Counted from the stretch's first letter, positions 1,339 to 62,658 are shown. The stretch is DNA of 64,000 bases from Lytechinus pictus (GCF_037042905.1 NC_087250.1:9612001-9676000), one strand, 5' to 3'. The notes: a model not told the origin generated them from the letters alone. Program-made: numbers and translations.

Positions 1339-1865
1339 AAATGTGAAAATCAACATTGAACACCCCGAGTTTGCTACAATACAGGGAGCATCTAATCTCT
1401 TATAAAGCAGCCATTAACTCATTGCTACAGCATATGATGTTCCTTGCAGTATGCTGTCAATTCTGAATGGTATTGCAATGTTTATATTTTACAATTTGCT
1501 GACAAACAATATAACAGCTCGCTTTCTTGGAGGCGTGACACTGACATTGGCATTTCGAATGCGGATTTTGATTGAAATCGTTGGAGGGTTTTTTTAATGG
1601 TAAAATGGATGAATACCTTTCTAAACATTTATTTTTGACCTAGATGGGCTTTGATGCCCCCACCTACTTATATTGTAGTGGATGACTGATCACTAAACAA
1701 TTAGTAGGAAATCGCTGCACAGGGTGCATTCCATTACAACAGATTTCTATTGATTTCTGAAAGCGAATATTCAAAATATGTCAAGTTCATTCGGACGTGC
1801 ATGTACATGTATGCATCTGAAATAGTGAATTTTGACATTTAGTTCAATAGCTGTGTGGTGTTTGC

Positions 1866-1950
1866 ATAATATGTCTGTAAAGCGCTTAGAGACGTCATTC
1901 CGATGTATTAAGCGCTATATAAATGTGGAATATTATTATTATTATTATTG
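1866..1950 (+). mobile_element. Isolated 3' tail of an L2-type SINE/LINE
   Basis: tctgtaaagcgcttagagacgtcattccgatgtattaagcgctatataaa..(tta)n is nearly identical to the SINE tail at 41457-41533. Confidence 0.75.
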
Positions 1951-1989
1951 CTTTAGAAGTAAGATGTGCAACAATTGAAGCGAACTGAA

Positions 1990-2260
1990 GTTGTAAAGCC
2001 ACTTTGGAAAATCACCTGGCGATGTGGTTTTCAAGATCGCTTTTTCGTCTCAAGCTACTCTGAATGTAGACGAGGACACGATCGTTCTTCAGAGCATGTG
2101 ACCCCACTAAGATAGTTCCCATAGCAACAAGACCACTTTACTTGAAGTGGTTTTTGGAAACCAGTTCAGGAGATGGTGATGCGGATGCGAGCAAAGCGAT
2201 CTTCTAAACTTGCTTTTAAAGGGAAACCAGTTCCTTTCAGTAAACTTTCTGGTCACTTAC
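1990..2260 (-). mobile_element. Diverged inverted copy of the 7090/44512 MITE family
   Basis: The reverse complement shares gcgatcttgaaaac.acatcgc.aggtg.ttttccaaa, cttgttgctatgg and gaagatcgctttgct. Confidence 0.7.
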
Positions 2261-2704
2261 GGGGCTTTGACAATCGCTTTTGCGATAGTTTGTGCGATCA
2301 TTTGGTCACAATATATGTTGCACACAATCGCAACGGCTGTAAGCAGTCGCATCACCAATTGTGAAAGGGGCTTTGGAAATGATTTCCCCTGCTATTCAGT
2401 CAAATATGACTAAGAAGTACCATCTGAGAGTTGTATGATACATGTATGTCTTTGAATATTTCATGCCTTCATGTACATATGTAGGCCTACATGTAGAATT
2501 TAGATACTCGCAACGCTGTTTAGAATTGTTATATCTACATGCAATCATAAAGAGGAACCCCCCCCCCCCCAGTACACAACACACCATGTACATACTTGAA
2601 AGAAAAAAAATTGTATTTGAAAAATAGGAAAAGAGAGATAAGAAGTCAAACAATACAAATGAAAATGTTCACACTAATAGATAGAATGAGGGACAAAGAA
2701 TGGG

Positions 2705-2950
2705 GCTGAAAGAGAGGGAGAGAGAGAGAGAGAGGGGGAGAGAGAGTGTGTAACATCACTGAGGCTAAAGCATGGGTGTCATCTCAAAAGTAGTGTATAC
2801 TGGGTCTTTCATTTGGGTTTATCAGTATCAGGGAAAGAGAGAGAGAGAGAGAGAGAGAAAGTGATAGAGGAAAAGAGATAAGAGACAATGTGAGAAAGAA
2901 ATTAAATACAGTTTGATAAAGGGGGGGGGGGGGGGTAGAGAGAGAGAGAG
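2705..2950. repeat. (GA)n and poly-G simple repeats
   Basis: Seen directly in the sequence. Confidence 0.85.
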
Positions 2951-3229
2951 CTTGAGAGTGCAAATAATACACTGACAGCATAAGGATAGCGAGAGTGTTT
3001 CATATGCGATTATCTTGTGGAGGATTTCAGTTCGGAAATAATGCCCGTGTTAAGTCTGGCAAGTGGTGGAAACGGCCCTTCACAATGGGTTGAGTAGGTA
3101 AATCTGTGCTGACTCTTGGAGGCGAATCCCATTGATCTGGAGAGAGCCCCCATTGTTCAAAGGTATGCCTTGGGGACAATGGTGTATGGGGGAATACAGA
3201 GGGGTTCTTGTTATTGTGAGTGGAGTCCT

Positions 3230-4310: not shown

Positions 4311-7089
4311 TGTGTTGGGGATTTTACAGACCTATGAATCAGTTGTATGATTTTCATCTCCACGTGACTCTGCCTATGAAGTCGAATCTGTTGGAGTACA
4401 GAAATCTTTTTGACTGAAGATAAAAATTTGACTTCAGTATGTACCTAACTATACGAAATAATTTTATGCACTAATGTAGCAATGCCCCTGCCTCATTTCA
4501 CAATCCACAAAAAGTTTTTTTTTCTTCAGTGGTAGGCCCTTTCCATGTACAAGTATGTCTGCCACAAGTTCCAGTGATCTGCAGTCGAATCGGTCTTCCA
4601 TAGAGAAAGGACAGACATGAATGTCCTGAGTAATGCTTTGGGGAAGTACTGATTCATGATTCATGAAAGTGCCCTGTGGTTGTGTAACCATCTTTTCTTT
4701 TCTGATAGGTGATTTTTCCATTACAGTGTTTGTGTTCTCTGGTAGCAAAAACTTCAGTACAACTTACTCATTTGCATTAAACAGTTCTTGATATATATGT
4801 GCATGTGGTGGTGAAATGTAGGTACATGTATTTGAGCTTGTGCATTTCTTTTCTTCTGGACAGAAAATACAAGATATTTTATTTTGTCTTTGCAAACATG
4901 ATGATTGCAAATAAATTTGTTTTCCAGTGGTATAATTACAATAGACATTTATGAACAGAACAGAACCAAGAAACAAATAAATTACATGTGCTCATTTATC
5001 AAGCAGATACAAAAAAAACTTCAAGCAGAAATTATGATTTGTGTGTGAATGCAGAATAAGAATGTCGAAAAGAATGCTTCCACTGCGGCCTGTTTTATCA
5101 TTTCGAGGCAAATGCTTCTATGACACGTACATGTACGGAAGGGGACGTCAAGTTTGGGTGCACAGATTTTCAACCCTTTAGGAGAGTGAGTCCACATATA
5201 TGCGCTCTTCAGTCTATAGAATTAGAAAACATGTTTTATGAAATCATTCAGTCTCCAACCGATTTAAAGAGAATTTTTGTGGTACGCCAATTTAACTGAT
5301 GATTGATGAAGAACAAGTGTATGTGTGTGTATGTGGGGGAGGGGGGAAGAGAACCACAAAAAAGATTATTGTTGTGGTCGAAATCGGTTCATCACCTTGC
5401 AATAATATTTTTTTCTGCTTTCCATTTGCATCATTCATTAAAAAGTCCCATTCATACAAGGCAATATTCATACTGAAAGCAAACCTGAACCTTGCACAAC
5501 ATGATGAAATGTCATTATGGTGTGAAAGGCTTGAATGAGAAATCTTCTTCAAAATAGTGAAATCAGATGAAGTCTACGAATCAAGGGAAATGATCAGGAA
5601 ATACAATTACAATGGCACTAGCGAATTTGTCACATGAATGTCCTAAGAGAGCCCTTGGAAATCCCTTTGGGCCTAATGTAAATTGTAATACATGTACAAC
5701 AACTTTGGCTAATCTGCCGTACTTTGGCAAAAGGAAGCAAGTTACAAAAGTATAATTTGTTGCAAATGAGCAATGTGTGTTTGTCATTTACATAGGTGTC
5801 AATGCAATTTTACAGTCATATTTTCTTCAATATCTTTTTTATAGAACAATCATTTCTTCTAATAAGTCAAATTTGACTGATGTGTCACTTGCTTCCTTTT
5901 GCCAAAGTTGGGCAGCAATAGTAATACAGTACATTATATGTATTTTTGTATTCCTCTTCTTGGTTGACTAAACAATGATTTTGAATAATCTGAATGGGGA
6001 TACATGCAGAGGGTCAAATCATCATTCATAAGACTTAAAGATGCGAACTGTGGTTAAGGTACATGTACTGAATCCATGAAGCCATTCAAGACAAAGTAAC
6101 CAGCTTTTCTGATCTGATTTGGCTCGATAAATTTGATGCACTGCCCTAAAAAGAGACATGAGAACCCTTGAAAAAAGTGTGAGAAAAAAATCCATGCATA
6201 TCCAAGCATTTACTGGGCCATTTTTATTTTGTTATTTGGAGGGAAAAGGTGGGAAGCCCCCCCCAACCCATTCAAGTGATGAACAATTTTTTTCTACATA
6301 TTTCTGAAATGCCATCAACAATCAGAAATATAATATTATATAATTCTGTAGTCAACAGGTTGATATATTTTGATTAGCCTACTTATAATCCAACTGATTA
6401 ATTTGTATTCAACCATGCTTTATGTTTTAGGTTGCCAGTTTACCACTCAAGACTTGTAGCACTGATTTTTCCCCGATGGGTTGGGTTGGCACTGATAGTC
6501 ACTGTCGCCTCCCCAGGAGGATCAATCTTCATCAGCCATTCTTTTTTAAAAGTTATCATGCCATTTCTATTTAGTACATCATTTTGATTAGAACAATCAT
6601 GTGAACAAATGAAATAAAATCTATAAACTGATTAGGGCTTAGTTACGTGCACCCCCCCCCCCCTCCCCTTAGAGAAGAAGATACCCCCAAATATGAAATT
6701 AGCAGCCAATTTTAGGGTTGATCGCCCTTACCTTTTATCCTTTTTTATTCATCTAATTTTCAATGAGGAGGATGTAAATTATATCCTAAAGCCACCTGTG
6801 ATGCCCCCTTATAGTCGCAGAGGAATCCATCCTTTGACGATCGTTGGAAATGTCAACTAGGCGTAAGGCTGATGGAGACATGGCTTGGGTGTACACTGTA
6901 TTATCTCTTTCAACCTTGTTTCATGCTCGGTTAAATCTCAGACAATAGACCAGCATTCCCTGTCTTCTCGAACAATATTTCACCCTCTATCTAAGTCCCA
7001 CAATGCATGGTGCATTTAGTGAGTCAGTCTATGGAGATTCTCAGGAATGCACTTCAATGTACATGACTATGTACTTTTTTATTCTAAAA

Positions 7090-7552: not shown

Positions 7553-7584
7553 AAAGTTGAAATATACACTTCTCTCATTTTTAC

Positions 7585-8165: not shown

Positions 8166-9056
8166 GAATTCCATACTTGTCAATAGCTCCCGACTCGGAC
8201 AGGGTTCAATTAGCTTTAATACTATCATTTTCCTGGGATACATGTACATTTGTTTACATTAATTTAAAGAGTTTCAACCCAAATGGATGTTATTTGATCA
8301 ACATTTGCTTGACTTGTGTAAAATTAAATGCTCGGACAAATGGTTGGATAAAGGAAAGCTCACTTGGATATAAAGGTATGTTGTTTAAACCTCTTATTTT
8401 AGGTAGTAATGTCAGTTTATAGAAATTTCTGTATGGCTTGTGCCTTGTTTCCATGTTGTGACCGCCAAAACCTTACAGATCATTTCTGCATATTTTACTA
8501 ATAAATCAAAATAAACAAAAAACTATTTTTCAAAATGATCAGACTAAATTGTTCATGATTAAAGCACTGAATTAAGCAGTAATTAGACTTTCTGTGAATT
8601 CATATATGAAAAATATATTTTGCCATTGCTATGTTAGACCATACTTGATCATGATGTTTAGTTCTGATTATTCTGTTAATTAAAGTGAGAAATGAATGAA
8701 TATTGCTCTTAGTTGTCAACTTAGATACCAGTAGCTCTGTGAATAATTATCAAAAGCTCACAGAAAACAAATTAAGGAATTCATAGAATTTAATTGCAAT
8801 ATAATATTGTTTTTAGGTCAAATATTTTGAATTGTGAAAAATGCAGGTAAAGCCAGGAAAATCAATTCAGAACCCAATTAAAAAAAATATCATGAATAAG
8901 TAAAGACCTGCTTGCAGTGTTTGGCATACATGATTTCCAACTTTTATTTGGAAACTTTTTACAATATTTTACAACTTTTTTAACGCACATATAAAAGGTG
9001 TTTTGATAATTATCACTTTGTGTTTCTCTGTGCTCTGCAGTTGACACACTTATTAA

Positions 9057-9650
9057 AAGCCAAGTCCACCCCAGAAAAACTTCGATTTGAATTAATTGAG
9101 AAAAATCCAACACGCATAGCACTGAAATTTCATCAAAATCGGATGTAAAATAAGAAAGTTATAACATTTTAAAGTTTTGATTATTTTTCACAAAACAGTT
9201 ATATGCACAACTAAGTGACATGCAAATGAGAGAGTCAATGATATCCCTCACTCATTATTACTTTTCTATTCAATATTTTAATTTTTTGCATAGTTGACAA
9301 TAAGAGCAAACTTCTCTGTACAGTGTACCATAAACTATTACATTTGTAACTCTACATGTTCATGGAAAAATAAAACTTTGTTTCACATGACATTGATGAG
9401 AAAATTAGAATATTTCATATTTGTAATAAAATACAAAAGAAATAGTGAGTGGCATCATCGGTCCCTTCATTCCCACACCGACCAAGATGTGCTTATACAT
9501 GTAATTGTTTTGTGAAATCAAGCAAAAGTTAAACATTACATTTTTGGAACTTTCTTTTTACATCCAATTCTGATGAAATATTCAGTGTTAAGTTTGTTGG
9601 ATTGTTCTCTTTTTGTTCAAATCAACTTCTTGTTGCGGTGGACTTGCCCT
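9057..9650. mobile_element. TTAA-flanked MITE with long TIRs (Kolobok-like)
   Basis: TTAA|aagccaagtccacc...ggtggacttgccct|TTAA. The internal gaaatttcatcaaaatcggat is shared with the 60650 element. Confidence 0.85.
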
Positions 9651-10234
9651 TTAAGAAATAAGTATTTGCAGTTGTATTGAGAGATAATTGGTTTCTATGA
9701 TTCAGTGCTTGAAATATTTCAAATAAAACCAAAGGTTCTTCATGTGTGCTTATCTCACTTGAAAAGACCAAAGCTGTCCCAAACTGAATGGGATTCAGAA
9801 ATGCTTTATAAAGACATTTCGTTCACAAGGTCATTTTTAAGCTGATCCGAAAAAGTAAATACAAATTGCAAATTTCATCCGCTACGTCATTAGATTTGTT
9901 CATTTACCTATAACGGCTTTTAAGAAGCCCCTTTTCATGTAGTCATACAATGCATATAAGATAAAGGGTCTGTTCCCATAAAATACAAACATCAATCGAA
10001 AATATTTCAATATCTTTTATTTAGTTTTTTTAAAGTGAATGTTTACAATTATTTGATAGTAGATCATATATGTTTAGAATGATTTTTAGTACATTTCTAT
10101 AATAAATGCCACAGACAAAACAATATGTTATGCTTGTTATGTAATGGAAATGGTATTATAGGAATGATACATGTATGTACATGTATGCATAAGGAAACAA
10201 AAAATCAAAGGAAATGCCTTGAAAGAGGTGAACG

Positions 10235-10704: not shown

Positions 10705-11370
10705 ACATAAAATCATAGTGTATGTTTGATTCTAAATCTACAGAGGACAGCCCTCCTTTAATAGAATATGCCAGTAGGAACAGGCCGTCTTCCTCACTAA
10801 AGGATATTTGAGAAGATAATAAAAGATCGAGGTGCTACTTGTTGGCTAGGCCCGCCCGGCCAAAGTACGATGGCCGCCCTTTGGCCGTCATTGTTTGCTT
10901 TCGATAACGCCACACTGACACCATGCATGTACTATCTATAGAAACTTCTCACTTGTGGAAATTTAATTATAAGCAAGATGAATGCAATACTGCCATACTG
11001 GAATATTTGGTCTTTGATTATACAGTATATGCACGGTGACGGTACAGATACCAATATACTTTGTCCCTTAAAACGTATTTGAATGCCAGTTAACAATATG
11101 AAATACGTTCAAACAGAATTAAAAACAATGACCACCAAAGTTAAGTGTTTTAAAAAGTGCCAAATTATTTTGTTAGGGGAAAAAGGTGTAATTTCTGAGA
11201 ATTCGACCACACAAACATGGTATTTCAGCAAGATGTTGGATCGTTCTCCAAGCAACAATGGTACATAGTCCCACATGTGCTTATCTCTGTTGGGGATCTC
11301 CAGAGTGGTTGCATTTTCAGCTTAGATAAGTTCACTGTGGCAAATCTACATGTAGATCTACTATGACAGA

Positions 11371-11850
11371 CTAGGTGGTTTCAGACCGACTCGAAGTTCG
11401 TTAGTTCCAGGTATTTTCTGATCGTGAAATTCACCCCGATCAGAAAATACCAGGAATATTGGCAATGTGAAAGCCAATTATGCATAATCTCCCCGAAAGA
11501 AAATACCCACTAAATAGTAGGTACTTGTCAGAATTACGAGAACTTTCACAGGGATTTTTCCAACGTCGCAGGTATTTTGGCAATGTGAAAGCAATTTACG
11601 GGAACTTTTAGCCCAGCATGTAGTTAGGCGCGGGTGCCGTGGGTTGCTGCTGAGCTAGTGATTTTGAATCTCGCGCCTTGCCTGCTAATCAAACCATACT
11701 GCGCTTGGTCGTATCTTTAGGAACTTATCTCGAAGGGTATGTTTTGGGGTGGTGTGATTCTAGGAATGATTAATGGGTATTTTTTAGCCTAAGAAAGTTC
11801 TTGTAATTTAACAGGGATTCTTATGATCGAGGCGGTTTGAAACCACCTAG
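11371..11850. mobile_element. MITE, about 480 bp
   Basis: TIRs ctaggtggtttcagaccg.ctcga / tcgaggcggtttgaaaccacctag. Internal direct repeat ttggcaatgtgaaagc. Confidence 0.85.
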
Positions 11851-12681: not shown

Positions 12682-13250
12682 TCATATCTTCAGCTGATGT
12701 ATATATGCAGGTTGGTGGTTCTACACTATGTGTATTGGTCAGATACACTTCTTACAGTGGGGTACCCCAAGGGTCTAATCTGGGTCCTAATTATTTATGG
12801 ACAAAAGGCAAATTTATTGTCACTAATAATAATAATAATATACATGTAGGGTATTTGTATTGCGCACATATCCACCTTGTTAGGTGCTCAAGGCGCTCCT
12901 ATATTACCCGGCTAAGCTAGGCGTTCATAGCGCACACAGCTTTTAAAGCAATTACTTCCTACCGGTACCCACTAACACTCTTATTTCACATCTTCAGCTG
13001 ATGTGCGGGTTGAGGGTTTACAGATTTGTACTAGTCAGATATGATGGTCACATTAGGGCTTCCCCCAAGGATCTTATCTGGGTCCTCTTGTTTCTGTTCA
13101 CATCTACATTCTTCTTTCACATCTTCTGATGTATGTGCGGGTTGAAGGTTTACAGATTTTGATCAATCAGATACATGTAATAAATGGTGGTTACATACAT
13201 GTAAGGGCTTCCCCAAGGGTCTTATTTTGGTCTTCTTGTTTCTCATGAAG
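12682..13250 (+). pseudogene. Three tandem decayed copies of a CR1/L2 reverse transcriptase motif segment (GVPQGSxLGPLLF)
   Basis: Copy 1 reads SGVPQGSNLGP. Copies 2 (12986) and 3 (13116) share the flanking DNA and ccccaagg.tctta..tgg.tc.tcttgtttct. Confidence 0.7.
12823..12972 (-). mobile_element. 5'-truncated SINE (3' half)
   Basis: Near-identical to 40234-40381. Confidence 0.9.
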
Positions 13251-17184: not shown

Positions 17185-17665
17185 AATTTTGGGCAATCAT
17201 TTGAATTAAAACAATCATTGCATTCTGGCAAGTAAATACTACGCAATCATTATTGCAATTTGAAGTCATTTGATGTTGTCAATCATTGTTTTTCATTTCA
17301 GTTTGGAATCCCTGTATTGGCAATCATTGTGTTTTAAAGTCATTTGATGTTGGCAATCATTGTTTTCAATTCCAATTTGGAATCCCTGTATTGGCAATCA
17401 TTGTGTTTTGTACATGTAGGATTTGTTTGCCAAATATTGGCAATCATTGCATGTTTTCACCCATTTGATTTGGAAATCAAATTGCCAGTCATTTTCAAAT
17501 ATTTGCAATCATGAGTAATCTTTTGGGCAACCATTTGAATCAATACTGTCATTGATTTTGGCAGTCATAATGTAGGCAAAAAGTTGATACAGGCACAGGC
17601 AATGATTTCATTTAGGCAATCATTTCACAAATGCAATCATCACATTTTCATGTATGCCATCATTA
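17185..17665. repeat. Degenerate array of ggcaatcatt motifs
   Basis: More than 15 (g)caatcat motifs, including a duplication of about 56 bp at 17302/17377. Confidence 0.8.
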
Positions 17666-49700: not shown

Positions 49701-50647
49701 TAAATGAAAATACCCATCTCTGCTCTCTTATTTTTGGTTCATGGAACAAAGGGTTTATTTATTTATTTATTTTTTTTTTTTTTGTTTAGTGTTGTTAATC
49801 AAAATAGTCTTTGGAATTTATGGAATTTAAGTTGTAACCATATTTTTTTCAAATATCAGAAAAAGATATTGCAAATGCAACTATTTTGTTTCTCCTTTTT
49901 CGGGGCTTACTTTGTACTGCTTTTTCATACAATCATAGACCTTCAAATTTGTCAGGTTTTTAAAAATACATATTTGGGCAGCAATTTTATTTGTAATTTT
50001 ATCAGTTATGTATATATATGTAATTTTTTTTGGGGGGGGCAATTTTTTATTAATTATGCTTTTTTTTTTTTTTTTTTTTGAAATCAGTGTCTTTCAGAAT
50101 TGTCAGTTTTCAAATTAATCAGTTAGTTAAAGAAAGATATTAGTAAGAGGAAATTATGTTACCATTTTTTTTACAGATAGGCCTAAATTTTAACTTCCCT
50201 TTATTTAATAATTGATATTCAACATTTCCAGGACATTTTTTTGTTTGTCTAACTGATCAGTTATATAACTCAATCAGTTGTTGAAGAACATTGCAAATTT
50301 GATAATTGCAGTTTACCTATGACTTTGAAAATGTTCAGGGTTTTTTTTGGGGGGGGGGTTGATCAGTTTTCGTGGAGTTTTTCCTTCAAATTGATCTGTT
50401 ACAGGAATTAATGTTGCCAATTTGATGATCCCTTCTTAGAAATAATGATCAGATAGCACGCTTATTGTGGCATGTTGGTGTGTGCACCTATCTTTTTCTT
50501 TCCCAGGAGGAGCAAAACGGAAAGTCTGAGCTCGACGCCATTATGATGCAACGTAAATCACGGGTCCTCGACGAGACCCTTCCCCCGCCCGATTTCATCC
50601 CGGAAACGCCTCCGGTTTTCGATTCACCTACAGGTAGACATCATTGA
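19722..50647 (+). CDS. EPS8: EPS8-family (EGFR kinase substrate 8-like) gene, 19 coding exons, about 1002 aa
   Basis: Manually spliced exons all have GT-AG borders and compatible phases, totalling 3009 nt. The translation shows EPS8 hallmarks: [24 protein letters not shown] (PTB), [44 protein letters not shown]3 FDFVARN..EL...WWEVRN.SG.SGYVP, and effector [40 protein letters not shown]. Confidence 0.96.
20280..20439. mobile_element. CWG-flanked MITE (Harbinger-like)
   Basis: CAG|ggcctcgttgcataaaagttac...gtaacttttatgcattggggcc|CAG. Relatives lie at 59174-59323 and about 50838-50985. Confidence 0.85.
21006..21133 (+). CDS. EPS8: EPS8 coding exon 2 ([15 protein letters not shown]...KGHY)
   Basis: Polypyrimidine tract plus caacag, donor gtaggt, open frame, phase 2 to 1. 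Confidence 0.78.
21177..21395. mobile_element. Small MITE-like inverted-repeat element
   Basis: ttagtaactcg..tccggaccagtccc / gggcctggtgcgga..cgaattactgaa. Confidence 0.55.
21986..22245 (+). CDS. EPS8: EPS8 coding exon 3 (His/Gln/Pro-rich, ends RFPVE at start of PTB)
   Basis: Acceptor tgcag, donor gtaagg. VE continues into HL of the next exon, matching the EPS8 VEHL motif. Confidence 0.9.
22257..22505. repeat. (GAT/GGT)n microsatellite in intron 3
   Basis: Seen directly, starting 11 nt after the donor. Confidence 0.95.
22485..22772 (-). mobile_element. tRNA-derived SINE with CORE-like centre
   Basis: The reverse strand has A box tggtctagtgg, a B-box-like ggttaaaatcc and core ccaggtgaggtgaatgggtac. 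Homologous to 34927. Confidence 0.85.
23230..23637. mobile_element. Harbinger-like MITE interrupted by a retroposon 3' end
   Basis: TIRs gggatgtttcacaaagatttaagtat / atacttaaatctttgtgaaacaccc. The insert at 23426-23611 is flanked by atact repeats. Confidence 0.85.
23709..23870 (+). CDS. EPS8: EPS8 coding exon 4 (PTB domain)
   Basis: [39 protein letters not shown]..., 162 nt, AG/GT borders. Confidence 0.96.
24060..24385 (-). mobile_element. CR1/L2-type LINE 3' fragment
   Basis: Minus strand reads [28 protein letters not shown], typical of an ORF2 C-terminus. Confidence 0.7.
24957..25106 (+). CDS. EPS8: EPS8 coding exon 5 (PTB domain)
   Basis: ETLEVFPL...[10 protein letters not shown]...[12 protein letters not shown], borders ttccag / gtgagt. 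Confidence 0.95.
25230..25560. repeat. Purine-rich (GAG/GAA) low-complexity tract
   Basis: Seen directly in the sequence. Confidence 0.9.
26311..26592 (-). mobile_element. tRNA-derived SINE
   Basis: Reverse strand: ggagcgttgtggcccagtggattagtctccggactttgaaacagagggtcgtgggttcgaatccc (A and B boxes), core, and (tta)n tail. Confidence 0.9.
26647..26720 (+). CDS. EPS8: EPS8 coding exon 6 (end of [27 protein letters not shown])
   Basis: Borders ttccag / gtaggc, phase 0 to 2, completes the PTB C-terminal helix. Confidence 0.88.
26746..27016. mobile_element. MITE family A (ggccccgtcttacaaagagtt.cgattgatcc TIRs)
   Basis: An inverted full copy lies at 39235-39507, and the same ends occur at 61572/62658. 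Confidence 0.92.
27020..27148. mobile_element. MITE family B
   Basis: ccataacacaaaggttagcaatt...ttgctaagttttgtgttacg. Copies at about 43574-43700 and 57131-57261. Confidence 0.85.
27152..27302. mobile_element. MITE family C, CTG target duplication
   Basis: CTG|gtgggtatattcatgaagctgtttgtaa...ttacaaacagctttatgaaac..cccac|CTG. Relative at 33988-34151. Confidence 0.85.
27306..27432. mobile_element. Internally deleted copy of the 23230 MITE family
   Basis: gggtgttgcacaaagatttaagt / catacttaaatctttgtgaaacaccc. Confidence 0.85.
27480..27922. mobile_element. MITE-like element
   Basis: TIRs ccagttcgtagtt / aactacgaactgg. Confidence 0.6.
28011..28585. mobile_element. Diverged 23230-family MITE containing a nested MITE (28042-28256) and its inverted partial duplicate (28259-28395)
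   Basis: Outer ends tttcacag..gtgtgacttag / taagagcgactccaagtc..tttgtgaaacccc. Inner TIR gttgcaagaaa.ttgcgatcaattgcaa. Confidence 0.8.
29304..29592. mobile_element. MITE related to the 15111 termini, with an internal 119-bp tandem duplication
   Basis: Ends cagagctgcca / tggcagctatg. 29348-29461 is repeated at 29467-29582. Confidence 0.65.
31308..31397. promoter_or_regulatory. Candidate intronic enhancer: RFX X-box plus DR1 nuclear receptor site
   Basis: GTTACCCATGGCAAC at 31308-31322 and TGACCTTTGACCT at 31385-31397. Motif match only. Confidence 0.35.
33040..33550. repeat. Degenerate tandem repeat
   Basis: Recurrent agaa.ggtatc...gggg..tgtactt and ctactctaaatct blocks. Confidence 0.65.
33988..34151. 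mobile_element. MITE family C copy (palindromic)
   Basis: tttcataaagctgttcgtaatttaagagcgactttaagaatgactgg / ccagtcgttcttaaagtcgctcttaacttacgaaccgctttatgaaa. Confidence 0.88.
34927..35093 (+). mobile_element. tRNA-derived SINE (3'-truncated)
   Basis: Has the A box, a degenerate B box and core gcactcgacccaggtgaggtgaatgggtacc. Confidence 0.88.
35392..35609 (+). CDS. EPS8: EPS8 coding exon 7 ([13 protein letters not shown]...VKNKVAAF)
   Basis: Resembles the EPS8 IPPPPRAPAP...VRSRVAAW segment, phase 2 to 1. The donor is ag|gtacat. Confidence 0.9.
35638..36276. mobile_element. Old TIR element (same family as 43012) with a nested MITE at about 35752-35923
   Basis: atgtgacc..ccccaaacca.caataagtc is shared with 43016. 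The nested element has TIRs tttccc.tacg.c.g.cgta.gg.gagt.gaaaca / tgtttctgacttgccgtacgtctgccgtaggggaaa. Confidence 0.6.
37829..37944 (+). CDS. EPS8: EPS8 coding exon 8 (...[16 protein letters not shown])
   Basis: Borders ttacag / gtaaga. Ends in RDV as in EPS8 ARIDRDV. Confidence 0.92.
38308..38523 (+). CDS. EPS8: EPS8 coding exon 9 ([11 protein letters not shown]...[11 protein letters not shown])
   Basis: Highly conserved central domain, borders cacag / gtaagt. Confidence 0.97.
38982..39205 (+). CDS. EPS8: EPS8 coding exon 10 ([20 protein letters not shown]...LWMSLGRAW)
   Basis: Conserved central domain, borders ttccag / gtaagt. Confidence 0.97.
39235..39507. mobile_element. MITE family A, inverted relative to 26746
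   Basis: Full-length reverse-complement similarity. Confidence 0.92.
39596..39790. mobile_element. Small TIR element with (t)taggg-like interior
   Basis: acatttgctcctgcgaaaattgctcc / ggagcaattgtcgctggagtaaatgt. Confidence 0.75.
40234..40514 (-). mobile_element. Full-length tRNA-derived SINE
   Basis: Has A and B boxes (tggcccagtgg, ggttcgaatccc), core and (tta)n tail. Confidence 0.92.
40702..40891 (+). CDS. EPS8: EPS8 coding exon 11 ([15 protein letters not shown])
   Basis: Matches EPS8 EWPKE..YVPRFRNGWEP, borders ctgcag / gtaaga. Confidence 0.95.
41256..41533 (+). mobile_element. tRNA-derived SINE with L2-like tail
   Basis: Head ggagcatcgtggtgtaccggtt..gtttgaatccc, core ctcgacccaggtg..aatgggtacc, tail tgtaaagcgcttaga. 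Confidence 0.88.
41652..41908 (+). CDS. EPS8: EPS8 coding exon 12 (HxNGP heptad-repeat linker)
   Basis: Borders cgcag / gtaaga. Open frame with phase 0 to 2 is needed to join exons 11 and 13. Confidence 0.88.
42133..42286 (+). CDS. EPS8: EPS8 coding exon 13 (Pro-rich plus SH3 N-terminal half)
   Basis: [22 protein letters not shown], borders catag / gtaaat. Confidence 0.95.
42412..42560 (+). mobile_element. Possible Penelope-like element terminal fragment
   Basis: cctgaaga-t-aacaag-aacaca-cttgtc-aaaacgtcg resembles the hammerhead-bearing pLTR motif ctgaNga..cgaaacg. Confidence 0.5.
42799..42978 (+). CDS. EPS8: EPS8 coding exon 14 (SH3 C-terminal half)
   Basis: [26 protein letters not shown], borders gacag / gtgagt. 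Confidence 0.96.
43012..43461. mobile_element. MITE-like element
   Basis: tatgtgacctgccccccaaaaccagcaataagtc / ggcttattggtgattttggggtggtatgtcacata. Confidence 0.7.
43825..43888 (+). CDS. EPS8: EPS8 coding exon 15 ([21 protein letters not shown])
   Basis: Borders ttttag / gtaagt, phase 0 to 1. A possible in-frame alternative donor follows 43867. Confidence 0.85.
44512..44956. mobile_element. MITE, second copy of the 7090 family
   Basis: Colinear similarity to 7090-7552. Confidence 0.92.
45024..45107 (+). CDS. EPS8: EPS8 coding exon 16 ([27 protein letters not shown])
   Basis: Strong tttcag / gtgagt borders, 84 nt, symmetric phase 1-1, open frame. Confidence 0.8.
45995..46180 (+). mobile_element. 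Second SINE family (tRNA-like B box ggttcaattcc)
   Basis: The tail cttagcaatcag.ta.aaa recurs at about 22815-22865 (inverted) and about 32590. Confidence 0.65.
46465..46645 (+). CDS. EPS8: EPS8 coding exon 17 (effector region: [10 protein letters not shown]...[17 protein letters not shown])
   Basis: Matches EPS8 VQDELIHRL...ITYDSTPEDVKTWLQSKGF, borders ctgcag / gtaagt. Confidence 0.96.
46860..47456 (+). repeat. Three decayed tandem copies (about 181 bp) of exon-18 acceptor plus exon start
   Basis: ga.tgtgcacagtctt...tgaatg.tgcc.agttgttta at 46915, 47096 and 47276, versus the true exon at 47457. Confidence 0.95.
47457..47589 (+). CDS. EPS8: EPS8 coding exon 18 (SAM-like: [25 protein letters not shown]...QKAALQ)
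   Basis: Near-identical to the EPS8 effector helices, borders tatag / gtaact. Confidence 0.96.
47614..47980. repeat. 22-bp minisatellite (ttgattgcaaaattatgttgcaa-like) starting at a MITE-like GGGG terminus
   Basis: About 15 units seen directly. Confidence 0.85.
50507..50647 (+). CDS. EPS8: EPS8 coding exon 19 ([17 protein letters not shown]...GRHH*)
   Basis: Acceptor tcccag. [10 protein letters not shown] resembles EPS8 SELQEIMRRR. Stop at 50645-50647, but cag|gtagac at 50633 could be a donor to an unidentified last exon. Confidence 0.88.
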   Translation, partial: EEQNGKSELDAIMMQRKSRVLDETLPPPDFIPETPPVFDSPTGRHH

Positions 50648-53600
50648 TCCACAGTAGTTATTCACAATGTAAAGAGGGGAGTACGGGATGATGTATTCAA
50701 AATATCCCTTTCACCAATTAAATGCACTTCGATATGAAAAAAAATTGTCAAAATTTGGATAATTTTTCCCAATTCATTTCAAATAAATATTTTCTTTCCA
50801 TTTCACAAATTAATACATTTTAAAAAATATATTCAATGGTCCCATTCCATAAAGAGCTGTTATTACATCAAATGCACAGTTTTTGTATAACAAGTTTACT
50901 ATCAGCCAATTCTATTGATTGATTTTAGTAGCTTTAAACTGTTATTGCACATTTGTCATGATAAAAAGTTTTGTGAAACGTGCCCCAGATAAATTAATTT
51001 GAGCAGAAAACAGTTAAACATGGTCTTATTTAAGGTTACATGTCTTCATTCTATTTTATCAAAACCTGATTGGAAATGTGGAATTACACTGTATAGAAAC
51101 TTGATAGTACTTTCCTTCAAATATTAATGAACTTTGACAAGAAATTAATGCAAATTAGTCATTCTGTAGCTAAAGCATTTTTCTTTCCACTTTTTAAAGC
51201 ATGATTAGGCATATAGATTTGCTATTTGTTGCTAAGGAAAAACATTTGTATTTTTGAGTTCTATAGAAAATAGAACTCGTCTACATGTGTTACAAATCAA
51301 AAGATGCTAACTTTTTTTCTTCAAGGAAATCAGCATTTTGTATTCTTCATCTCGCTTTTCATTTCTCCTTTTCTAAAAAAACATAATAAATGCTATCATA
51401 ATAATATTGCTAATAATTGAACATTTTCTCTACTATATTGAAAAAGCAATGGTCCTTCTGCATCAGAGTTAGGTCAGATGTCACATTTCAAATCAATAGA
51501 ATTCTTTTTGTAGTTATAGTTAAACTTTTTTGTATTTCACTGATTTCTTCTAAAACAAATTTAGTCTGTTCCCATTCACTCACAATAGATTCTCAGAATA
51601 TTTTCTCTGTTGTATAGTTATTTACTTCTTTAAAACAAATTGCAAATTGTCTTCCCCGGTCAATAATTGATCGGGAAAGATTGCTCAAAATATTTATTTC
51701 CCAACATGTTGGGCTCCTACGCTTTGCTCCTCGTATACTTCAGTTTTCATCATATTACTTTTCATCGTATTTTGTCGTATGTTGTGTCTCAGTGTATTCC
51801 ATTTGATGTAAACTCCACCTAACCAAGAAAATGCATGATAAATGTTTGTGTGCCATTTCATTTTACCCAAAATACTAGATGTATATATCAAGTTAATTAC
51901 ATGCAATTCCATGGTCTTCCATATATAATCTTGTTATTCTCCTAGATAAATTTTTTCCTTCATCTTCCACATTTTCAGTTGTATTTAGTGTACATGTACC
52001 CAACTAACAACTATCTTATATCATTTTATCTTCATTATTCTTTTTCCTCATTAACATGCATTCAGAATCAGAATTTTGTACTTTTCTTTGAACTTGCATT
52101 ACAGGATATTTGGGTCCATCTTTTTTTTAATAACCTGCTTTTAGTGACAAAACCTCTTATCTCACAAATATGGAATAAATGAAGAATGAGAAACATGAAT
52201 GCCATGAGGCTTTATGAAATAATAGAGTCTTGCTGTGACACATTATTTATTATCAGTTTTCAGCAAAGATTTCATGGGTTCACAAATATAAGTTTATTTT
52301 AATGTACCAGATCTAGATCTACACGTACATGTATGATAATATGATGAAAAATTAACCTTGATTTGAAAAACCTCATGAAATCATTTGCTGCAACTACTTT
52401 CTTTTTCACCTTTAAAATAAAGAAGTAAGCGTTCAAAATTTGAGATAAGAGGTTGCAGGCCTATTTTGCAGAAAGAATTGCACCATTCGCAGCTTGAATA
52501 AACACATTGATATCTAAGCAATGAGAAACCTACGACTGGCATATTATTTATTTGGTTGCATTTAAGTGCAAGACTTCCTGCAGTGTGCCTTATGTCACTG
52601 TATATAATGTGCTGGGATATCAAGGGATGTCACTGTGGTCTTGCACATAGCAACAAGTGCAGGCACACATTTCACGGAGCACCTACTCAGTTACTTTAAC
52701 TGGTAGATTCACTCTGGGCCAATCATACGTTAGCATTTCAATAGCTTATAACAGCTGCTAGTGAAAAGGCACTGAAAAAATGTTTCATAAAATGCTCCCA
52801 ATATCTCTGTATGATTTATTCTAAATTGGTATCCCTGCATTTCAGTGGTATGTAAAGGTTTGATATATATATAGTGATTGTACAGAAATGGGTAACTGAC
52901 ACTTGTTGCGATGCAAATAAACAAAGTGGTTCATATTATTTCCATTTCATACATATGCCCATCTTCTATCAATACATTTGGCATTATCTTATATGGCACA
53001 ATATACCATATAAGATGATAATGAAAAAGTGCACGTTATTACTTACTTAGGTTGATTTTAGGCATATATCATATAGTGAAATTTGTATACTACCCATTTT
53101 ATTACTTTACTTTTTAATCTGGCATTACGTAAGGAAAGCACTTTGGCATTTCATCTATTTTATCATTCTACCGTTATGACCGCTGTATTGCACCATTTTC
53201 ATCTATTGCCTGTGCAGTATTGATATATATATATATTATATGTACATGTATATCATATATGAATGCGATCAATTTTTGTCTCTTCTTTTTACAGAAAAGA
53301 TTCCAAATCATATTTGCAATACTGCGAAAATATCTTATCTTAATGTCTCTCCTAAAACTCTACTTTTTACTGCACCATCCTCATTCACCCTTCATTGTTA
53401 CCGGTATTGACAGAAGATGGTTTTTTATTTATGAATTACAGGATTTGTAAGGTATATCATTTTCATCGGCTTTCACCTTATACCATATAAGCCTATAGAT
53501 GTAGGGAATGCTGTATCACACAAGGCTATTGACATTATGCAATTATCTTATTACTTCTTATAGAGGGGCCCCCAGATGTCCCATGGTGAAGTAACCTGGA

Positions 53601-56600: not shown

Positions 56601-56960
56601 AGCATGATTATGTTGATTTTGTAAATGAATTTATTTTTTGATGAGAGAGAGACAGAATGACAGAGGTTATATCATGAGCGAGGGTATATATTTGCCCATT
56701 CATATTTACATGTAAATGAGGAGTTTTCAAATACAAATGACACACATTTTTCTTCATGTATTACACAGATTTATTTCCTACTGTTGCTTTACTTCACACG
56801 TAATACTATAACTTTTGTCTTACAAGGTTTATTCAATGTTTCTTATTATTTTCATACCCATTTTATTCACTTTAGACACATTACCCACATTGCAATCAAT
56901 CCTTTTTTTTTCATTTCAGATACCTTAAGAACAGACCAACAATTTTGAAAAGACAATCAG

Positions 56961-57261: not shown

Positions 57262-59173
57262 CAGATCTCATTTCTTTATACTGCTTTTTATGATGCATTC
57301 CCTTGCGATGCTATTTTGGCAATATATCTAAATTAACACTTCACTTATTAGAATTAACCTGATTCTGGTATAACTTGGCCTTTAAATCCAAATGAATGGG
57401 ATTGACATATGATATAGGTCTGGGTATCACAATTGGGAAAGAAATCTTAATGGTCCCTACCAGAAAACTTCCCGGTCTGTAAAATTAGTTATGGAACTTT
57501 GGACGGGCATGGACTTACAATGAAGTCCATGGTTTGGATGGCAGATTTTTCTTTCTTTTGCATATTTCTACTTCGGAAATGCATATTTTGACAAATTATG
57601 ACACATACTGTCATCATGCAATCTGTGTGATGTGATTGCACTTTTGCTTGCTTTATACCAGGAAAACAACTCAATTGTGTGATAATATATTAATGTTTTG
57701 GAGTTAAGGTCATATGAACACACACCCGCACACACACCCCCACACACATTGACACTTCTGTCCAAATATGTCTTTGATGTATACAAATACTGAACACATT
57801 GTTTAAACATCTCATAGAAATGTCTGTATTTTACATTAGATTAGGTGGTCATTTCTTAAAAGCCAAACGTGAAGACAGCTTAGATAGCGCATTTTGTGGT
57901 AAATGTCATATATTTTAGACAATGTAAAAGTTAGCACTAGCTGTACAATGGTCCTTTTCAACTAAGTGCAAACGGCAAATTTAGAAATAATTCTTTTTTA
58001 TTCATAACTTAATGTTAATGTAACGCCTGTACCCTAAACTGATTTTCATATATGTAAGAAGACATGTATTTTTTATATACCTGTTCACTCTCTGTATTTC
58101 CATTGATTATCATTCATATTTTATTATTTATCTTCTTTGAAATTATTTGTTCAATGTGAACGGGAATACTAGAATAAGTAGTTCATTTTTATATTGAAAT
58201 TGTTTTCCAGTAATATACCAATGATGCCCCCCCCCCCCCTTATCTGAATCGTAATGATATGCCAATACAGAAGTAAATAAATGGTGATAGATTTATACAA
58301 AAACATGACATGTGTAGATAACACATAAGGCCCAATCTTAAGAAATACATTTGTTGTCTTTGTAATACGGGAAATGAGTTTGAATTAAACAAGAAAGAGA
58401 CAAATTATATTTTATTCAATTCAGGTTTCTATATTTTATTTCAATTATACCAATGGTAATTGCATTTTTGTAATAAGATATTAAAGTTATATATTCCCAT
58501 AAATGATATTGCTGAAAAGAGAAGAATACTTATTCGGAATGAAGATATATCTGTATATAGAACTATAGATATTCATTATTAAAGGGAGAAATCATGAAAG
58601 TTGAATTTTCATAGCGATTATTGACATATGAACTTTATTTTCTTCTTGAATAATTTCATTGTTATATGATAACTACAGGAATTTCATTTGAATATATATA
58701 TGTTTTATTGAATAGATACGCGTTTATTAATTTCCCTTTTCCTTATTTTTGTAAATGATCACACTAATGCCTTTGCTATAACATTTTGAAAAGTCACCAT
58801 ATGTATATGTATTCTCATAAAGATTATATCAGATTCTACAGTTATATTCTAATGCAGCCATTTTGGAAAGAATTTCTGAAATGTCAGGCTTTCACTCGCC
58901 TACTCATTGAATGGAATGTAAATGTATAGTACTGTGAAAGATAATATTCTTGTAGAATTTCTATGTTATCATTTTACATGTATTTCGATGTGCCTTTAAA
59001 ATTGATAATACATTACGTCAAAGAATAAAGAGGACGATTTTGTTAGCCAATTCTTACACATGAGTGTCATCTCTCTCAGTATGATCTATGGAAAACAAAC
59101 AACCTCGCCAAAATGCATGTCTTCTTTCGTATCAGTGACAAACATTCATTGACCTGTCCTTGGATGAGTTCAG

Positions 59174-59323
59174 GGGCCTGTTTCATAAATAGTTACAACT
59201 GTTGTAACAATTATGGCAACTACCATGGCAACAGGGCTCAGCAGCCAATCAAAATCAAGATTACCGTGGTAGTTGTCATAATGGCAAAGTAACAACAGTT
59301 GTAATTCTTTGTGAAACGGGCCC
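59174..59323. mobile_element. CWG-flanked MITE (20280 family)
   Basis: gggcctgtttcataaatagttacaactgttg / aacagttgtaattctttgtgaaacgggccc. Confidence 0.85.
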
Positions 59324-60649
59324 CTGATCTTTGTAGCCAAAGAATTATGACCCTTTTGGCTACCCATAGTTTGTATTGATTGTGCCATTCACAGTCATTT
59401 GTGAGAATGGGCCCTGGATATTCACGAATTCACATTAAGGATAACATGGTGAAATGATGAGTTACTGATCGTTATCCGCCTTGTTTTTCGTTTACTCAGT
59501 CTGACTATTACAGGACGTTTTGCTTTATCGTGTTCCATAGAAGAAGTAATGTAACCCTCTCATGTCGCTGGCGTAAATGTATTCTATCATTTCTGTACTT
59601 ATACGAGGTAAAACGTCTATTATTTGTTTTCTACAATCTTCTCAAAAGTTAGTATCGTACATTGTAATTATTATACCATTTTTGCGGGCAGATTAAATTG
59701 TATTATTACACTCGTACTCATCTCAAATGTGTGTCTGACTTATCAGTTCCAAATGTGTTCTTCACGCCATTTTTATTTTTGTTATTATTTTATTTATTTC
59801 TTATTGGGGGGGGGGGCATTTCTCTGTAAACAGACGTACTTTTACTATGTTTTTATAGTGTGTGAGATGTGTGCGTTTTGCACGAATTTATAGTAAGGTT
59901 TAGGATGGAGGAGCGCGGACAAACATGTGCGTTAGCGGGTGTATTAAAGTAAGTTTGCAATGAGCTACTTCTGGGGACATATTCTTACATTTTACCGACC
60001 AACCGGGGACGTCCACGGTCGAGGTCGCGATGTAGATCAATTCCTCATTTCAAATCGTTCCAAATGGTAAAAGCATGGTGTGTAAAAAGTATCCCTATCG
60101 ACCAAATAACTCAAGTTGTGTGTGTTCGGTCGGTTTAGAAATTGCCCCCCGGTGTTTTTCCCCTTTTTTTTGGGGGGGGGGGGGTGCGAACTATGCTCAC
60201 GTATGTCCGAAATTGAGATCGGTTAAGTGTGTGTGAGACCACTTTTGCGATTAATAAGTAAGTTATTGATTGTCAAATTACAAGAAGTCTGGTTGTGTGT
60301 GTGGGTGGGTGCGTGAGGGTGAGTGTGTTTATATGGTCAGGATAAGGAAGGGCAGGGAGATATGTGCGTGGAATGTCAATTGAGTGCGGAAGTTCAAATA
60401 TTAGGTCGGTGCATGGGGAAAGAAGGAAGTGGGAGGGAGAGAGTTGTACAAATAGATATAATTGATATAACGGGAGAAAGATATAAAAACGGAGGACAGA
60501 TACACAAATGAATAGTTATACGAATATAATGAGAAAAAAATGACAAGAATGTTGTTTGTGAGCACGAACTACCTGGAGTAGATTTGAATAAAATCCCAAC
60601 GAATTTAGATTAAAATCCTTCAACTTTTGATGCATGTATAAACTTTTAA

Positions 60650-61249
60650 AGATATGGTCCGGGCTGAAAATATTTATATCTTAATAAATAGAGTAAAATT
60701 CACAGAGCAAAATGCTGAATATTTCATCAAAATCGGATCACAAGTAACAAAGTTATTGAATTTAAAGTTTGTCAATATTTTGTGTAAACAGTTTATGCAC
60801 ATCATCCTGAATATTTATTAGGTGGACTGATGATGTCACATCCCCACTTTCCCATTTCTCATGTTATTACATGAAATCATAAATGTTTCATTGTTCATAC
60901 ATCTGTAAATGATGTGTCTCCATTACGATGTAATAGGTTGCGGCAATAAATAACTAACGCATTTAATCACTTGTCAATCCAGTTTGTTTAGTTCTTTGTA
61001 GAAAAAATGTTGAATAAACCTAATTTCATACAACAAAATACAAAAGAACAAGTGGGGATATGACATCATCAGCCCACCTAATGAATATTCATAAAGACAT
61101 GCCTAGAACTGTTTCAACGGAAAAATGCAAATCTGTAATTCAATAACTTTGTTATTTGGTATCCGATTTTGATCAAATTTTCAGCATTTTGCTCTGTGAA
61201 TTTCACTCTATTTATTGAGATATAAATATTTCCAGCCTGGACCATCCCT
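60650..61249. mobile_element. TTAA-flanked, largely palindromic MITE (Kolobok-like)
   Basis: TIRs of about 110 bp, plus an inner inverted pair at 60810-60850 / 61050-61090. Confidence 0.92.
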
Positions 61250-61571
61250 TTAAAATTTGACCCTAAATCTAATATCCGTCTGGTCACTATATAACTTCAG
61301 TCTCTCAGGATCAAATCCATGAATCGCTTGATTTCGGTATTCATATACAAAATGCAATACAAGAAAGTTTTATTGACGGCGAATACAATAAAGAGTACAA
61401 CTAGAAGCTTATTTTATTTACAAATAGAATTTTTTTTTTATTCACACGGAAAAATAAAGCAATTATACAACAAGTAGATTGCAAATGATGAGGGCATATT
61501 GTCATTTTTTTTTCATTTTTGTCATCAACGTGAACAAAGACCACTAATTATTAGTGAAGAGGATGTAAGAC

Positions 61572-61714
61572 CTGGGTCCCTTCTAAGAAGTTGTGATTGA
61601 TCCAATCAACCTCAACTACCCGTTATATATATATATATATATATATATATGCGTCGAAAATTTGGAATTCAAAATAAACTGTTGGAACAAAGTACAATGC
61701 ATTACCACTTTGCC

Positions 61715-61789
<75 letters not shown>

Positions 61790-62658
61790 CACAAATCCAC
61801 AATTTAAGTTTAAAAATGTCATGAAAACACAATTATTATAATTATATTGCCTGAAAAAATATCTTCTCCCAAATAATTTGATACCATCTCCGTGAGGTAT
61901 GTGTTCACGCTTGGATGATTGCATTTTTACCGTGATGTTAAGTTCGATTTGCGCCAAAATAAGGCATGGCTGCAACGAATGAATCATTTAATTTGAGAAT
62001 TGATACTTAACAGTGTTTATCAAACAATTATATTAAAATGTGTTTTTCCCATGGATTATAATGCAACCCTTGTAGGATTGTAACATCATTAATTGCAGTA
62101 ATGCTTTACTTTGGCGAAAAACAAAAGTTACATCGCTGCAAAGAATACCTACTGATTATCCAAGCGTGAAGACAATATGATATCAAAGTATTCGGATAAG
62201 ATGCTTTTTGCGGCCATTAATAATAATTGCATGTTCATGACATGCTTAAATTGGGTATTTGTGAGGTGTCATGTTTTCTTTTCTTTTTTCCTTGCACGGT
62301 ATAGGCCAGGGCGAACATCCTGACTTTTTTTTTTATTAACTCGAGCCCTAGCAACTGACCGGTGATGTTTTTGACATTATTTCATTGTTTCTTTGTTTTC
62401 ATCGCACTAAGGTCAGTGTTGTCGTCGTTAATAGGTGTGACGTCACCCCGCCTATTATGGAAATCCATCAATGTCACAATTTGTCCTCCAGAAAATATGC
62501 AAAATGTCGTTGTGTAAACAAAGAGGATGCGAAGAATGCACCCGAAAAAAATGAATATACATGTACGTCATATTTTCAAAACGTTTGAAAAAAAACCATA
62601 CTTTTGTGATTGCTGGTTGATCGGATCAATCGCAACTCTTTGTAAGACGGGACCCTAG
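61572..62658. mobile_element. Family-A MITE termini enclosing about 1 kb of unrelated DNA, including (TA)n and a nested inverted repeat
   Basis: Left end gggtccc..gttgtgattgatccaatcaa, right end ttgatcggatcaatcgcaactctttgtaagacgggaccc. Confidence 0.7.

Follow-up and report, generated by a model that had tools for sequence, protein, structure and literature searches.

The octamer TACATGTA, which recurs throughout a 64,000-nucleotide window of genomic DNA (C6:9612001-9676000 of an 811.7-Mb eukaryotic assembly in 368 contigs), is very probably the complete excision scar of TA-targeting Tc1/mariner cut-and-paste transposons with CA...TG ends, and several hundred thousand past excisions most likely remain countable in the genome. 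An earlier note on this stretch had read the octamer as a Tc1/mariner footprint of the form TA-CA-TG-TA. That reading is supported here, because the octamer is derived by insertion at TA, young elements with CA...TG ends reside in the genome, sister octamers share the same build, and the flanks of the scars have a symmetric context.

An exact word count gives 55 copies of TACATGTA in the window (0.86 per kb), each where the earlier note had placed it. That note had set about 55 copies against roughly two or three expected by chance, and dinucleotide-preserving shuffles of the window bear this out, with a mean of 1.95, a maximum of 6 and 55 or more in 0 of 100 shuffles. On both strands, 110 occurrences compare with 7.7 expected from an order-3 Markov model and 19.2 from order 4; the order-5 expectation is 46.6, in a model that already absorbs the motif itself. 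By order-3 z-score, TACATGTA tops all 65,536 octamers of the window, simple repeats included. The excess is carried by the full octamer: of 166 occurrences of the hexamer ACATGT on both strands, 110 lie within full TACATGTA, and the 56 that lack the flanking T..A do not exceed background. The related palindromes GACATGTC, CACATGTG and TGCATGCA show no enrichment in the window. The flanking sequence differs among all 55 sites, so the sites are not one repeat family. They occupy 52 loci, 49 of which are single, and the iterated forms reported previously are real at 33334/33340, 33750/33756 and 37189/37195.

The excess extends over the whole assembly, in which TACATGTA occurs 224,046 times versus 85,448 for the reversed word. 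For local densities we used a random genome sample of twenty 10-kb stretches (L017-L036, 200 kb in total). This sample holds 60 copies, or 0.3 per kb, and the window is about three times richer than this average; with both strands counted, 120 occurrences are observed against 15.0 expected, and TACATGTA is the most over-represented complex octamer there. The number per 10 kb ranges from 0 to 12, with a mean of 3.0 and a variance of 11.6; therefore, the scars are clustered. Variants with one mismatch are near background (ratios of 0.8-1.9); decayed scars thus form no clear halo, which suggests that the majority arose recently. That the octamer is an assembly or sequencing artefact is extremely improbable, since it is present across all large contigs sampled and contigs from public runs match the motif-bearing stretches 35580-35960, 35936-36502 and 36477-37856 with 0 differences, although these contigs may come from the assembly's own individual.

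The strongest test of polarity is provided by pattern counts at fixed sites of a tRNA-related short interspersed nuclear element (SINE), scanned genome-wide with at most three mismatches over 27 specified positions. At site 1 (GCTGAAGGAAAT-TA-CGCCATGGCTGGGAT), plain TA is present in 7,066 copies and TACATGTA in 6. Copies longer by 6 bp number 16 in all: these 6 TACATGTA, 2 TACCGGTA, 1 TACTAGTA, 2 local tandem duplications and 5 others, four of which are one subfamily variant. At site 2, which is a second TA, 11 longer copies comprise 4 TACATGTA, 4 TACCGGTA, 1 TACTTGTA and 2 tandem duplications, and the four TACATGTA differ in their flanking variants. A control junction without TA in the SINE consensus gives 4 matches: two are slippage-type duplications, and TACATGTA makes up the remaining two, both from a subfamily with TA at precisely this position. 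The scan of a site in a miniature inverted-repeat transposable element (MITE) with GG ends finds a single longer copy, which is again TACATGTA. When the four scans are pooled, exact TA-xy-y'x'-TA palindromes make up 20 of the 32 variants with 6 extra bp (13 TACATGTA, 6 TACCGGTA and 1 TACTAGTA), and recognizable tandem duplications of local sequence account for 6 of the 32. At these repeat sites the polarity is settled: the octamer is derived from an ancestral empty TA.

This polarity bears on replication slippage, under which the octamers would give rise to, or derive from, a (CATGTA)n hexanucleotide microsatellite. Such a process would account for the doubled form TACATGTACATGTA, which is found 9,353 times genome-wide versus 2,537 for its control and three times in the window, and for the reversed-register word ATGTACAT, which is likewise raised genome-wide. 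However, only about 4% of the TACATGTA sites are doubled (9,353 among 224,046), the ancestral sites are TA with no CATG available to slip, and the true slippage products are recognizable as the local tandem duplications counted above. Slippage is thus largely refuted as the source of the octamer and we regard it as very unlikely.

Alignments of other repeats provide further cases. Aligned together, 43 copies of a 605-bp MITE have a consensus without the motif, and just two insertions of 6 bp are seen against it, each creating TACATGTA. One of these is the scar at 9496, a clean insertion whose site is empty in 4 paralogs. In the random sample, clean 6-bp insertions at TA relative to paralogs lie at L024:8423 and L023:1060, and the sister octamer TAGGCCTA is a 6-bp insertion at TA both in a tandem repeat of L023 and at L023:9867. 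The earlier note had also described clean TA to TACATGTA differences between paired repeat copies. Within the window such pairs are few, and they are of mixed quality. The MITE-end pair (28560 versus 23613 and 27409) is clean, and the pair at 13196 shows a 6-bp gap against a copy (at 12975) of 74% identity. The pair 12841 versus 40251 is ambiguous, since an (ATA)n run lies next to the site and the alignment is gapless, and the copies at 33178 and 33397 differ in length by 4 bp instead of 6, with CATG lying between two TA.

The derivation at repeat sites also speaks to selection. The octamer might be a cis-element, for example a palindrome bound by a protein or a motif acting in RNA, that is held at high density; its perfect palindromy, its uneven distribution with about threefold higher density in this genic window, and the small halo of one-mismatch variants would all be in keeping with this. 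Nevertheless, a selected element has very little probability, because the octamer arises de novo as a 6-bp insertion at arbitrary TA sites in SINE and MITE copies and because several unrelated palindromes have the same TA-NNNN-TA build.

All of the enriched words share this TA-NNNN-TA form, with TA on either side of the added bases, and TACATGTA, TAGGCCTA and TACCGGTA are built alike from TA, two bases, the reverse complement of these and TA. The second word, TAGGCCTA, is 30% as common as TACATGTA (66,473 genome-wide versus 3,425 for its reversed control). In the random sample, 48 occurrences on both strands compare with 2.8 expected, and the 24 sites have mostly diverse flanks, 4 of the 24 lying within one tandem repeat of L023. 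Together, the two main types, TACATGTA and TAGGCCTA, amount to at least 290,000 scars genome-wide. This total is far above the resident elements seen and therefore points to a long-running, still recent turnover of insertion and excision. The third word, TACCGGTA, is raised in both the window and the random sample. The +7 words TACACTGTA (CAC + TG) and TACAGTGTA (CA + GTG) are found at 13 sites versus 2.8 expected, with diverse flanks and often in scar-rich stretches; they are predicted because CAC...GTG ends may leave three bases from one end. A 3+3 scar, TACACGTGTA, is not observed (0 versus 0.3 expected). The Sleeping Beauty scar is TACAGTA or TACTGTA, and these 7-mers are not enriched here (45 observed versus 38.5 expected).

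Two further sites concern related words. The paralogous positions L020:3213 and window 11594 share one TA, at which one copy has TACATGTA and the other has TATGCATA, likewise a TA-NNNN-TA palindrome and equally long; to judge from these copies, the two words may be independent scars at one TA. At L024:4800, CCA-TAGATCTACA-TGTT stands where the paralogs have CCATATGTT, an 8-bp insertion including TAGATCTA that is possibly a compound scar or one of a different type.

The young CA...TG Tc1/mariner family for which the earlier note had proposed a search is present in the genome, with ends of the form TA-CA...TG-TA. A profile search for DDE_3 (PF13358) yields 729 candidates, and all of the 150 that were scored are above the cut-off and free of internal stops, many having open frames of 364 aa. 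The young Tc1-like copies are 99.3-99.7% identical over ~1,902 bp and have inverted repeats of ~198 bp. Their ends are TA-CACTACTCAAAAAAAG...CTTTTTTTGAGTAGTG-TA, in shorter form CACTACTC...GAGTAGTG (CAC...GTG), and TA is found at 18 of 18 ends. In one example of this 1.9-kb element (L007:448-2349), PF13358 is matched with E = 7.9e-20 and PF01498 with E = 6.8e-19. The encoded 342-aa protein carries a DDE_3 and an HTH_Tnp_Tc3_2 domain, and related proteins go by the names Tc1-like or Tcb1/Tcb2 transposase. By its DDE_3 domain, Tc3-type helix-turn-helix (HTH) domain, terminal inverted repeats (TIRs) and TA duplication, the element belongs to the Tc1 family. The random 200 kb contains two more TA-flanked elements of ~1.8 kb with CAC... 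ends, one of which encodes a Tc3-type HTH domain.

The inner bases of the scars equal the terminal bases of resident TA-flanked elements in three cases, CA..TG, GG..CC and CC..GG. The GG...CC type is represented in the window by a MITE of 474 bp (11374-11847) with TA on both sides and the ends GGTGGTTTCAGACC...GGTTTGAAACCACC, for which a first look gives 2,362 candidates genome-wide. Among 39 genomic copies (90-92% identity), 29 start at TA and all 39 end no more than a few bases from the right-hand TA. In the random sample, L025 contains both a TA-flanked GG...CC element and a TA-flanked CC...GG MITE. The earlier note had recognized no element of this kind in the window. This stands for the Tc1-like elements, as neither a Tc1 transposase remnant nor a copy of the young element is found in the window, but it does not stand for the TA-flanked GG...CC MITE.

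The TIR scan for TA-flanked elements is noisy, and several of its candidates turn out to lie inside longer inverted repeats (window 28093-28344 and 59194-59303, L024 4047, L028 2675 and L022 7585). The candidate at window 39245-39497 is part of a MITE that has its real ends at 39230-39511 and is not TA-flanked, and an inner CCAGTC repeat of L020 was rejected as a nested element, as it belongs to a Tc1-like element. The ~280-bp MITE at 39230-39511 ends in TCCTGGGGCCCGTC...GACGGGGCCCAGGA, its adjoining flanks CTGTTCAG and TTCTTCAG match at 6 of 8 positions, and it has 4,967 candidates genome-wide with ~91% identity. The young Tc1-like copies often occur as head-to-head pairs 1.2-1.7 kb apart, with both copies truncated and joined in inverted orientation [C6:20053360(-)/20055005(+), C5:7793050(-)/7794693(+) and C4:487726(-)/489404(+); also L005, L008, L011 and L016]; such pairs could represent a rearranged or composite form that recurs and is amplified in its own right. 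The ~605-bp MITE (window 9050-9658) consists of long inverted halves and has at least 7,778 candidates genome-wide with ~78% identity, and TTAA at both of its ends suggests a piggyBac-type target. Several SINE families with a common tRNA-related core (GGCTGGGATTCGAACC) lie in the window (40351-40512, 26434-26588, 22612-22762, 34959-35084 and 12824-12971), and one 29-mer of the core has 7,066 near-exact copies genome-wide.

To compare the surroundings of scars and insertions, we aligned the flanks of 102 unique, non-doubled scars. They show a symmetric outward Y-R-T context (chi-square of 23-32 per position). At position 1, A is depleted (0.16 versus 0.31); at position 2, purines reach 0.69 versus 0.51; and at position 3, T reaches 0.50 versus 0.34. 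The flanks of TAGGCCTA have the same Y-R-T trend. At the young Tc1 insertion ends, T occupies the outward position 1 in 15 of 18 cases and Y-R-T is present in 6 of 18, a small sample, on which the scar context appears to be like the target preference of the young elements. Tc1/mariner elements are described as having a palindromic AT-rich target preference (PMC7913693), and the scar context resembles the pattern given there.

The scars would be explained by the following series of steps. First, an element would insert at TA and duplicate it, giving TA-CA...TG-TA, the arrangement seen for resident elements. On excision, the transposase would cut the non-transferred strands two bases in from either end of the element and leave a 3' CA overhang on each flank, as the scar itself implies. 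The CA and CA overhangs cannot pair and would therefore be joined by a fill-in that preserves both; germline end joining would keep and fill the two overhangs to give TA-CA-TG-TA, a net gain of 6 bp, in which the insertion is observed and the repair route presumed. The scars would then drift to fixation and accumulate. Other terminal dinucleotides would give the sister scars, TAGGCCTA from GG...CC ends and TACCGGTA from CC...GG ends, and TACTAGTA would imply CT...AG ends, though no such element was looked for. Finally, the doubled forms would result from slippage or from renewed hits on a TA that already belongs to a scar.

Several results count against excision as the origin of the octamer. 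First, one product dominates, whereas real end joining usually gives mixed products. The +4 words TACATA and TATGTA have no excess (273 observed versus 283 expected), and 0 of 14 +4 variants at SINE site 1 are of this kind. Second, none of the 32 repeat-site variants is TAGGCCTA, so this word must either predate the repeat copies in question or come in part from another source. Third, TACCGGTA is only modestly raised genome-wide (20,388 versus 14,407 for the control), and its count is less telling, with a CpG within the word and a SINE variant making up part of the count. At SINE site 1, 4 of the 6 TACATGTA carry a common T-to-C variant, so that a single event is possible. Lastly, we compared 20 kb with four sequencing runs, three with the same organism label, containing 0.33-0.38 of the sampled words, and a fourth from a relative. 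The difference tables are dominated by repeats and give no usable calls, and among the differences listed there is no 6-bp indel at a motif site. No locus is seen both occupied and scarred in these four repeat-dominated comparisons; therefore, the link between element and scar rests on sequence logic and not on direct observation.

Some of these results would also be expected if a TA-specific process other than excision, such as a domesticated transposase or nuclease combined with fixed-base repair, wrote the palindromes and the Tc1-like elements were bystanders. The single dominant product with little end-joining heterogeneity, the failure to see a transition from occupied to scarred sites in the four runs over 20 kb, and the absence of TAGGCCTA from the young repeat sites scanned all fit this explanation. 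We nonetheless consider it unlikely, because the inner bases of the words are the terminal dinucleotides of resident TA-flanked elements (CA..TG, GG..CC and CC..GG), the +7 variants agree with the third base of the CAC...GTG ends, and a nuclease would have no reason to add several different fixed tetranucleotides. A transposase-like process that stamps a fixed motif into the genome, which had been offered before as an alternative, is not needed, though it keeps a small probability.

Excision by Tc1/mariner transposases, our preferred explanation, is a mechanism of a known kind, as excision footprints of this group are established. For the genome-wide scale, the uniformity and the coexistence of end-specific scar words, no describing paper was found in a full-text search, which left subscription journals mostly outside its range. 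A wider proposal is evenly balanced in our judgment: transposase scars may be a major class of germline mutation, in which 2+2 footprints of several lineages are the commonest 6-bp insertions, cluster in hot regions and outnumber the resident autonomous copies more than 100-fold. If this is true, the genome is a readable and datable ledger of cut-and-paste turnover, germline end joining faithfully keeps both non-complementary overhangs, and excision-to-insertion ratios and repair fidelity are measurable by sequence alone. Transposons are usually counted by their remaining copies, and excisions stay invisible; uniform scars (224,046 TACATGTA and 66,473 TAGGCCTA) can be counted and would provide a direct estimate of past excision for lineages with different ends. 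Given the approximately threefold enrichment of the window and the spread from 0 to 12 per 10 kb, scars can flag hot regions. They also name a mutation class, +6 bp at TA, that is to be expected in the indel spectra of the species, and offer a natural readout of germline double-strand-break repair in which both overhangs are kept, unlike the somatic +4 products of C. elegans. The k-mer test for TA-xy-y'x'-TA palindromes would be usable for detecting heavy Tc1/mariner turnover in other genomes.

The octamers and the other features of the window are listed in Table 1. TACATGTA is not found in the three recognizable exons covered, which are an exon encoding a phosphotyrosine-binding (PTB) domain at 24867-25241 (+) and the blocks 38981-39205 and 41651-41905. 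These two blocks are joined across 2.4 kb in single contigs of the three public runs with the same organism label; the contigs look RNA-like and the junction resembles that of a spliced transcript. The scar-dense stretch at 32-38 kb sits between the PTB exon and these blocks. Separately, G8/C8 homopolymer runs are strongly in excess, with 84 in the window versus 6.9 expected and 364 in the random sample versus 55.6.

Table 1. Scar-type words and related repeats in the window (positions counted from its first nucleotide).
Feature	Position	Strand	Evidence
TACATGTA scar-type octamer	1804..1811	.	word count
TACATGTA	2439..2446	.	word count
TAGGCCTA (2482-2489) and TACATGTA (2488-2495) with common TA, apparently two scars at adjacent TA	2482..2495	.	
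TACATGTA	4823..4830	.	word count
TACATGTA	5128..5135	.	word count
TACATGTA	5689..5696	.	word count
TACATGTA	6060..6067	.	word count
TACACTGTA, +7 variant (CAC + TG)	6892..6900	.	
TACATGTA	8239..8246	.	word count
~605-bp TTAA-flanked MITE, host of scar 9496 and +7 variant 9319	9050..9658	+	43-copy consensus without motif
TACAGTGTA, +7 variant (CA + GTG)	9319..9327	.	
TACATGTA, clean 6-bp insertion at TA of MITE consensus	9496..9503	.	4 paralogs empty; 43-copy alignment
Two TACATGTA (10168, 10178), 2 bp between	10168..10185	.	word count
TACATGTA	11347..11354	.	word count
474-bp MITE plus its TA flanks, candidate source type for TAGGCCTA scars	11372..11849	+	39 genomic copies
TACATGTA in SINE copy, adjoins (ATA)n run, polarity ambiguous	12841..12848	.	
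TACATGTA	13172..13179	.	word count
TACATGTA, 6-bp gap versus paralog 12975	13196..13203	.	
TACATGTA	16480..16487	.	word count
TACATGTA	17411..17418	.	word count
TACATGTA	19203..19210	.	word count
TACATGTA	20211..20218	.	word count
TACATGTA	21423..21430	.	word count
TACATGTA	23316..23323	.	word count
TACATGTA (23452), then after 2 bp +7 variant TACAGTGTA (23462)	23452..23470	.	
TACATGTA	25639..25646	.	word count
TACATGTA	25731..25738	.	word count
TACATGTA; sister repeat ends 23613 and 27409 are CTTAAAT	28560..28567	.	
TACCGGTA (CC..GG type), 18 bp upstream of scar 32297	32271..32278	.	
TACATGTA	32297..32304	.	word count
TACATGTA	32713..32720	.	word count
TACATGTA	32763..32770	.	word count
TACATGTA; paralog 33397 is 4 bp shorter (TATA)	33178..33185	.	
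Doubled form TACATGTACATGTA	33334..33347	.	word count
Doubled form TACATGTACATGTA	33750..33763	.	word count
TACATGTA	33880..33887	.	word count
TACATGTA	35611..35618	.	word count; other-run contig, 0 differences
TACATGTA	35830..35837	.	word count; other-run contig
TACATGTA	36275..36282	.	word count; other-run contig
TACATGTA	36377..36384	.	word count; other-run contig
TACATGTA	36881..36888	.	word count; other-run contig
Doubled form TACATGTACATGTA	37189..37202	.	word count; other-run contig
TACATGTA	37553..37560	.	word count; other-run contig
tRNA-related SINE core; conserved TA sites are the genome-wide test sites for 6-bp insertions	40351..40512	+	
TACATGTA	40601..40608	.	word count
TACATGTA	43116..43123	.	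word count
TACATGTA	43461..43468	.	word count
TACATGTA	44056..44063	.	word count
TACATGTA	44312..44319	.	word count
TACATGTA	49212..49219	.	word count
TACATGTA	49415..49422	.	word count
TAGGCCTA (GG..CC type)	50178..50185	.	
TACACTGTA, +7 variant	51085..51093	.	
TACATGTA	51991..51998	.	word count
TACATGTA	52326..52333	.	word count
TACATGTA	53243..53250	.	word count
TACCGGTA (CC..GG type)	53399..53406	.	
TACATGTA	56707..56714	.	word count
TACATGTA	58975..58982	.	word count
TACATGTA	62558..62565	.	word count

Finally, we compared the scars with known systems. In C. elegans, 78% of somatic Tc1 scars are reported as +4 products, TACATA or TATGTA, in which one overhang is kept (PMC12632400). The TA target, the TA on either side, the CA/TG from the element ends and the end joining are shared with the scars described here; however, +6 with both overhangs dominates here and +4 has no excess, so that the outcome of repair departs from that of the best-studied Tc1 case. 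For Sleeping Beauty and mariner, staggered cuts three bases inside the element are described, which leave 3' overhangs that non-homologous end joining converts to a fixed footprint (PMC7827188). Here too, overhangs of element bases appear to be joined into a small fixed footprint between two TA, although two bases per end are implied in place of three, and only the minority +7 words keep three from one end. In rice, what cut-and-paste elements (Mariner/Stowaway and others) leave behind on excision has likewise been surveyed at genome scale, with only 8 of 94 excisions given as 'perfect' and most carrying deletions or filler DNA (PMC4423477); in contrast, one uniform product is found here, and it is the top complex octamer of the random genome sample. 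HIP1 (GCGATCGC), the highly iterated palindrome of cyanobacteria, is also a palindromic octamer far over expectation genome-wide, but it is prokaryotic, its authors relate it to DNA methyltransferases (PMC4390886), and it lacks the TA-duplication build and has no known link to transposon ends.

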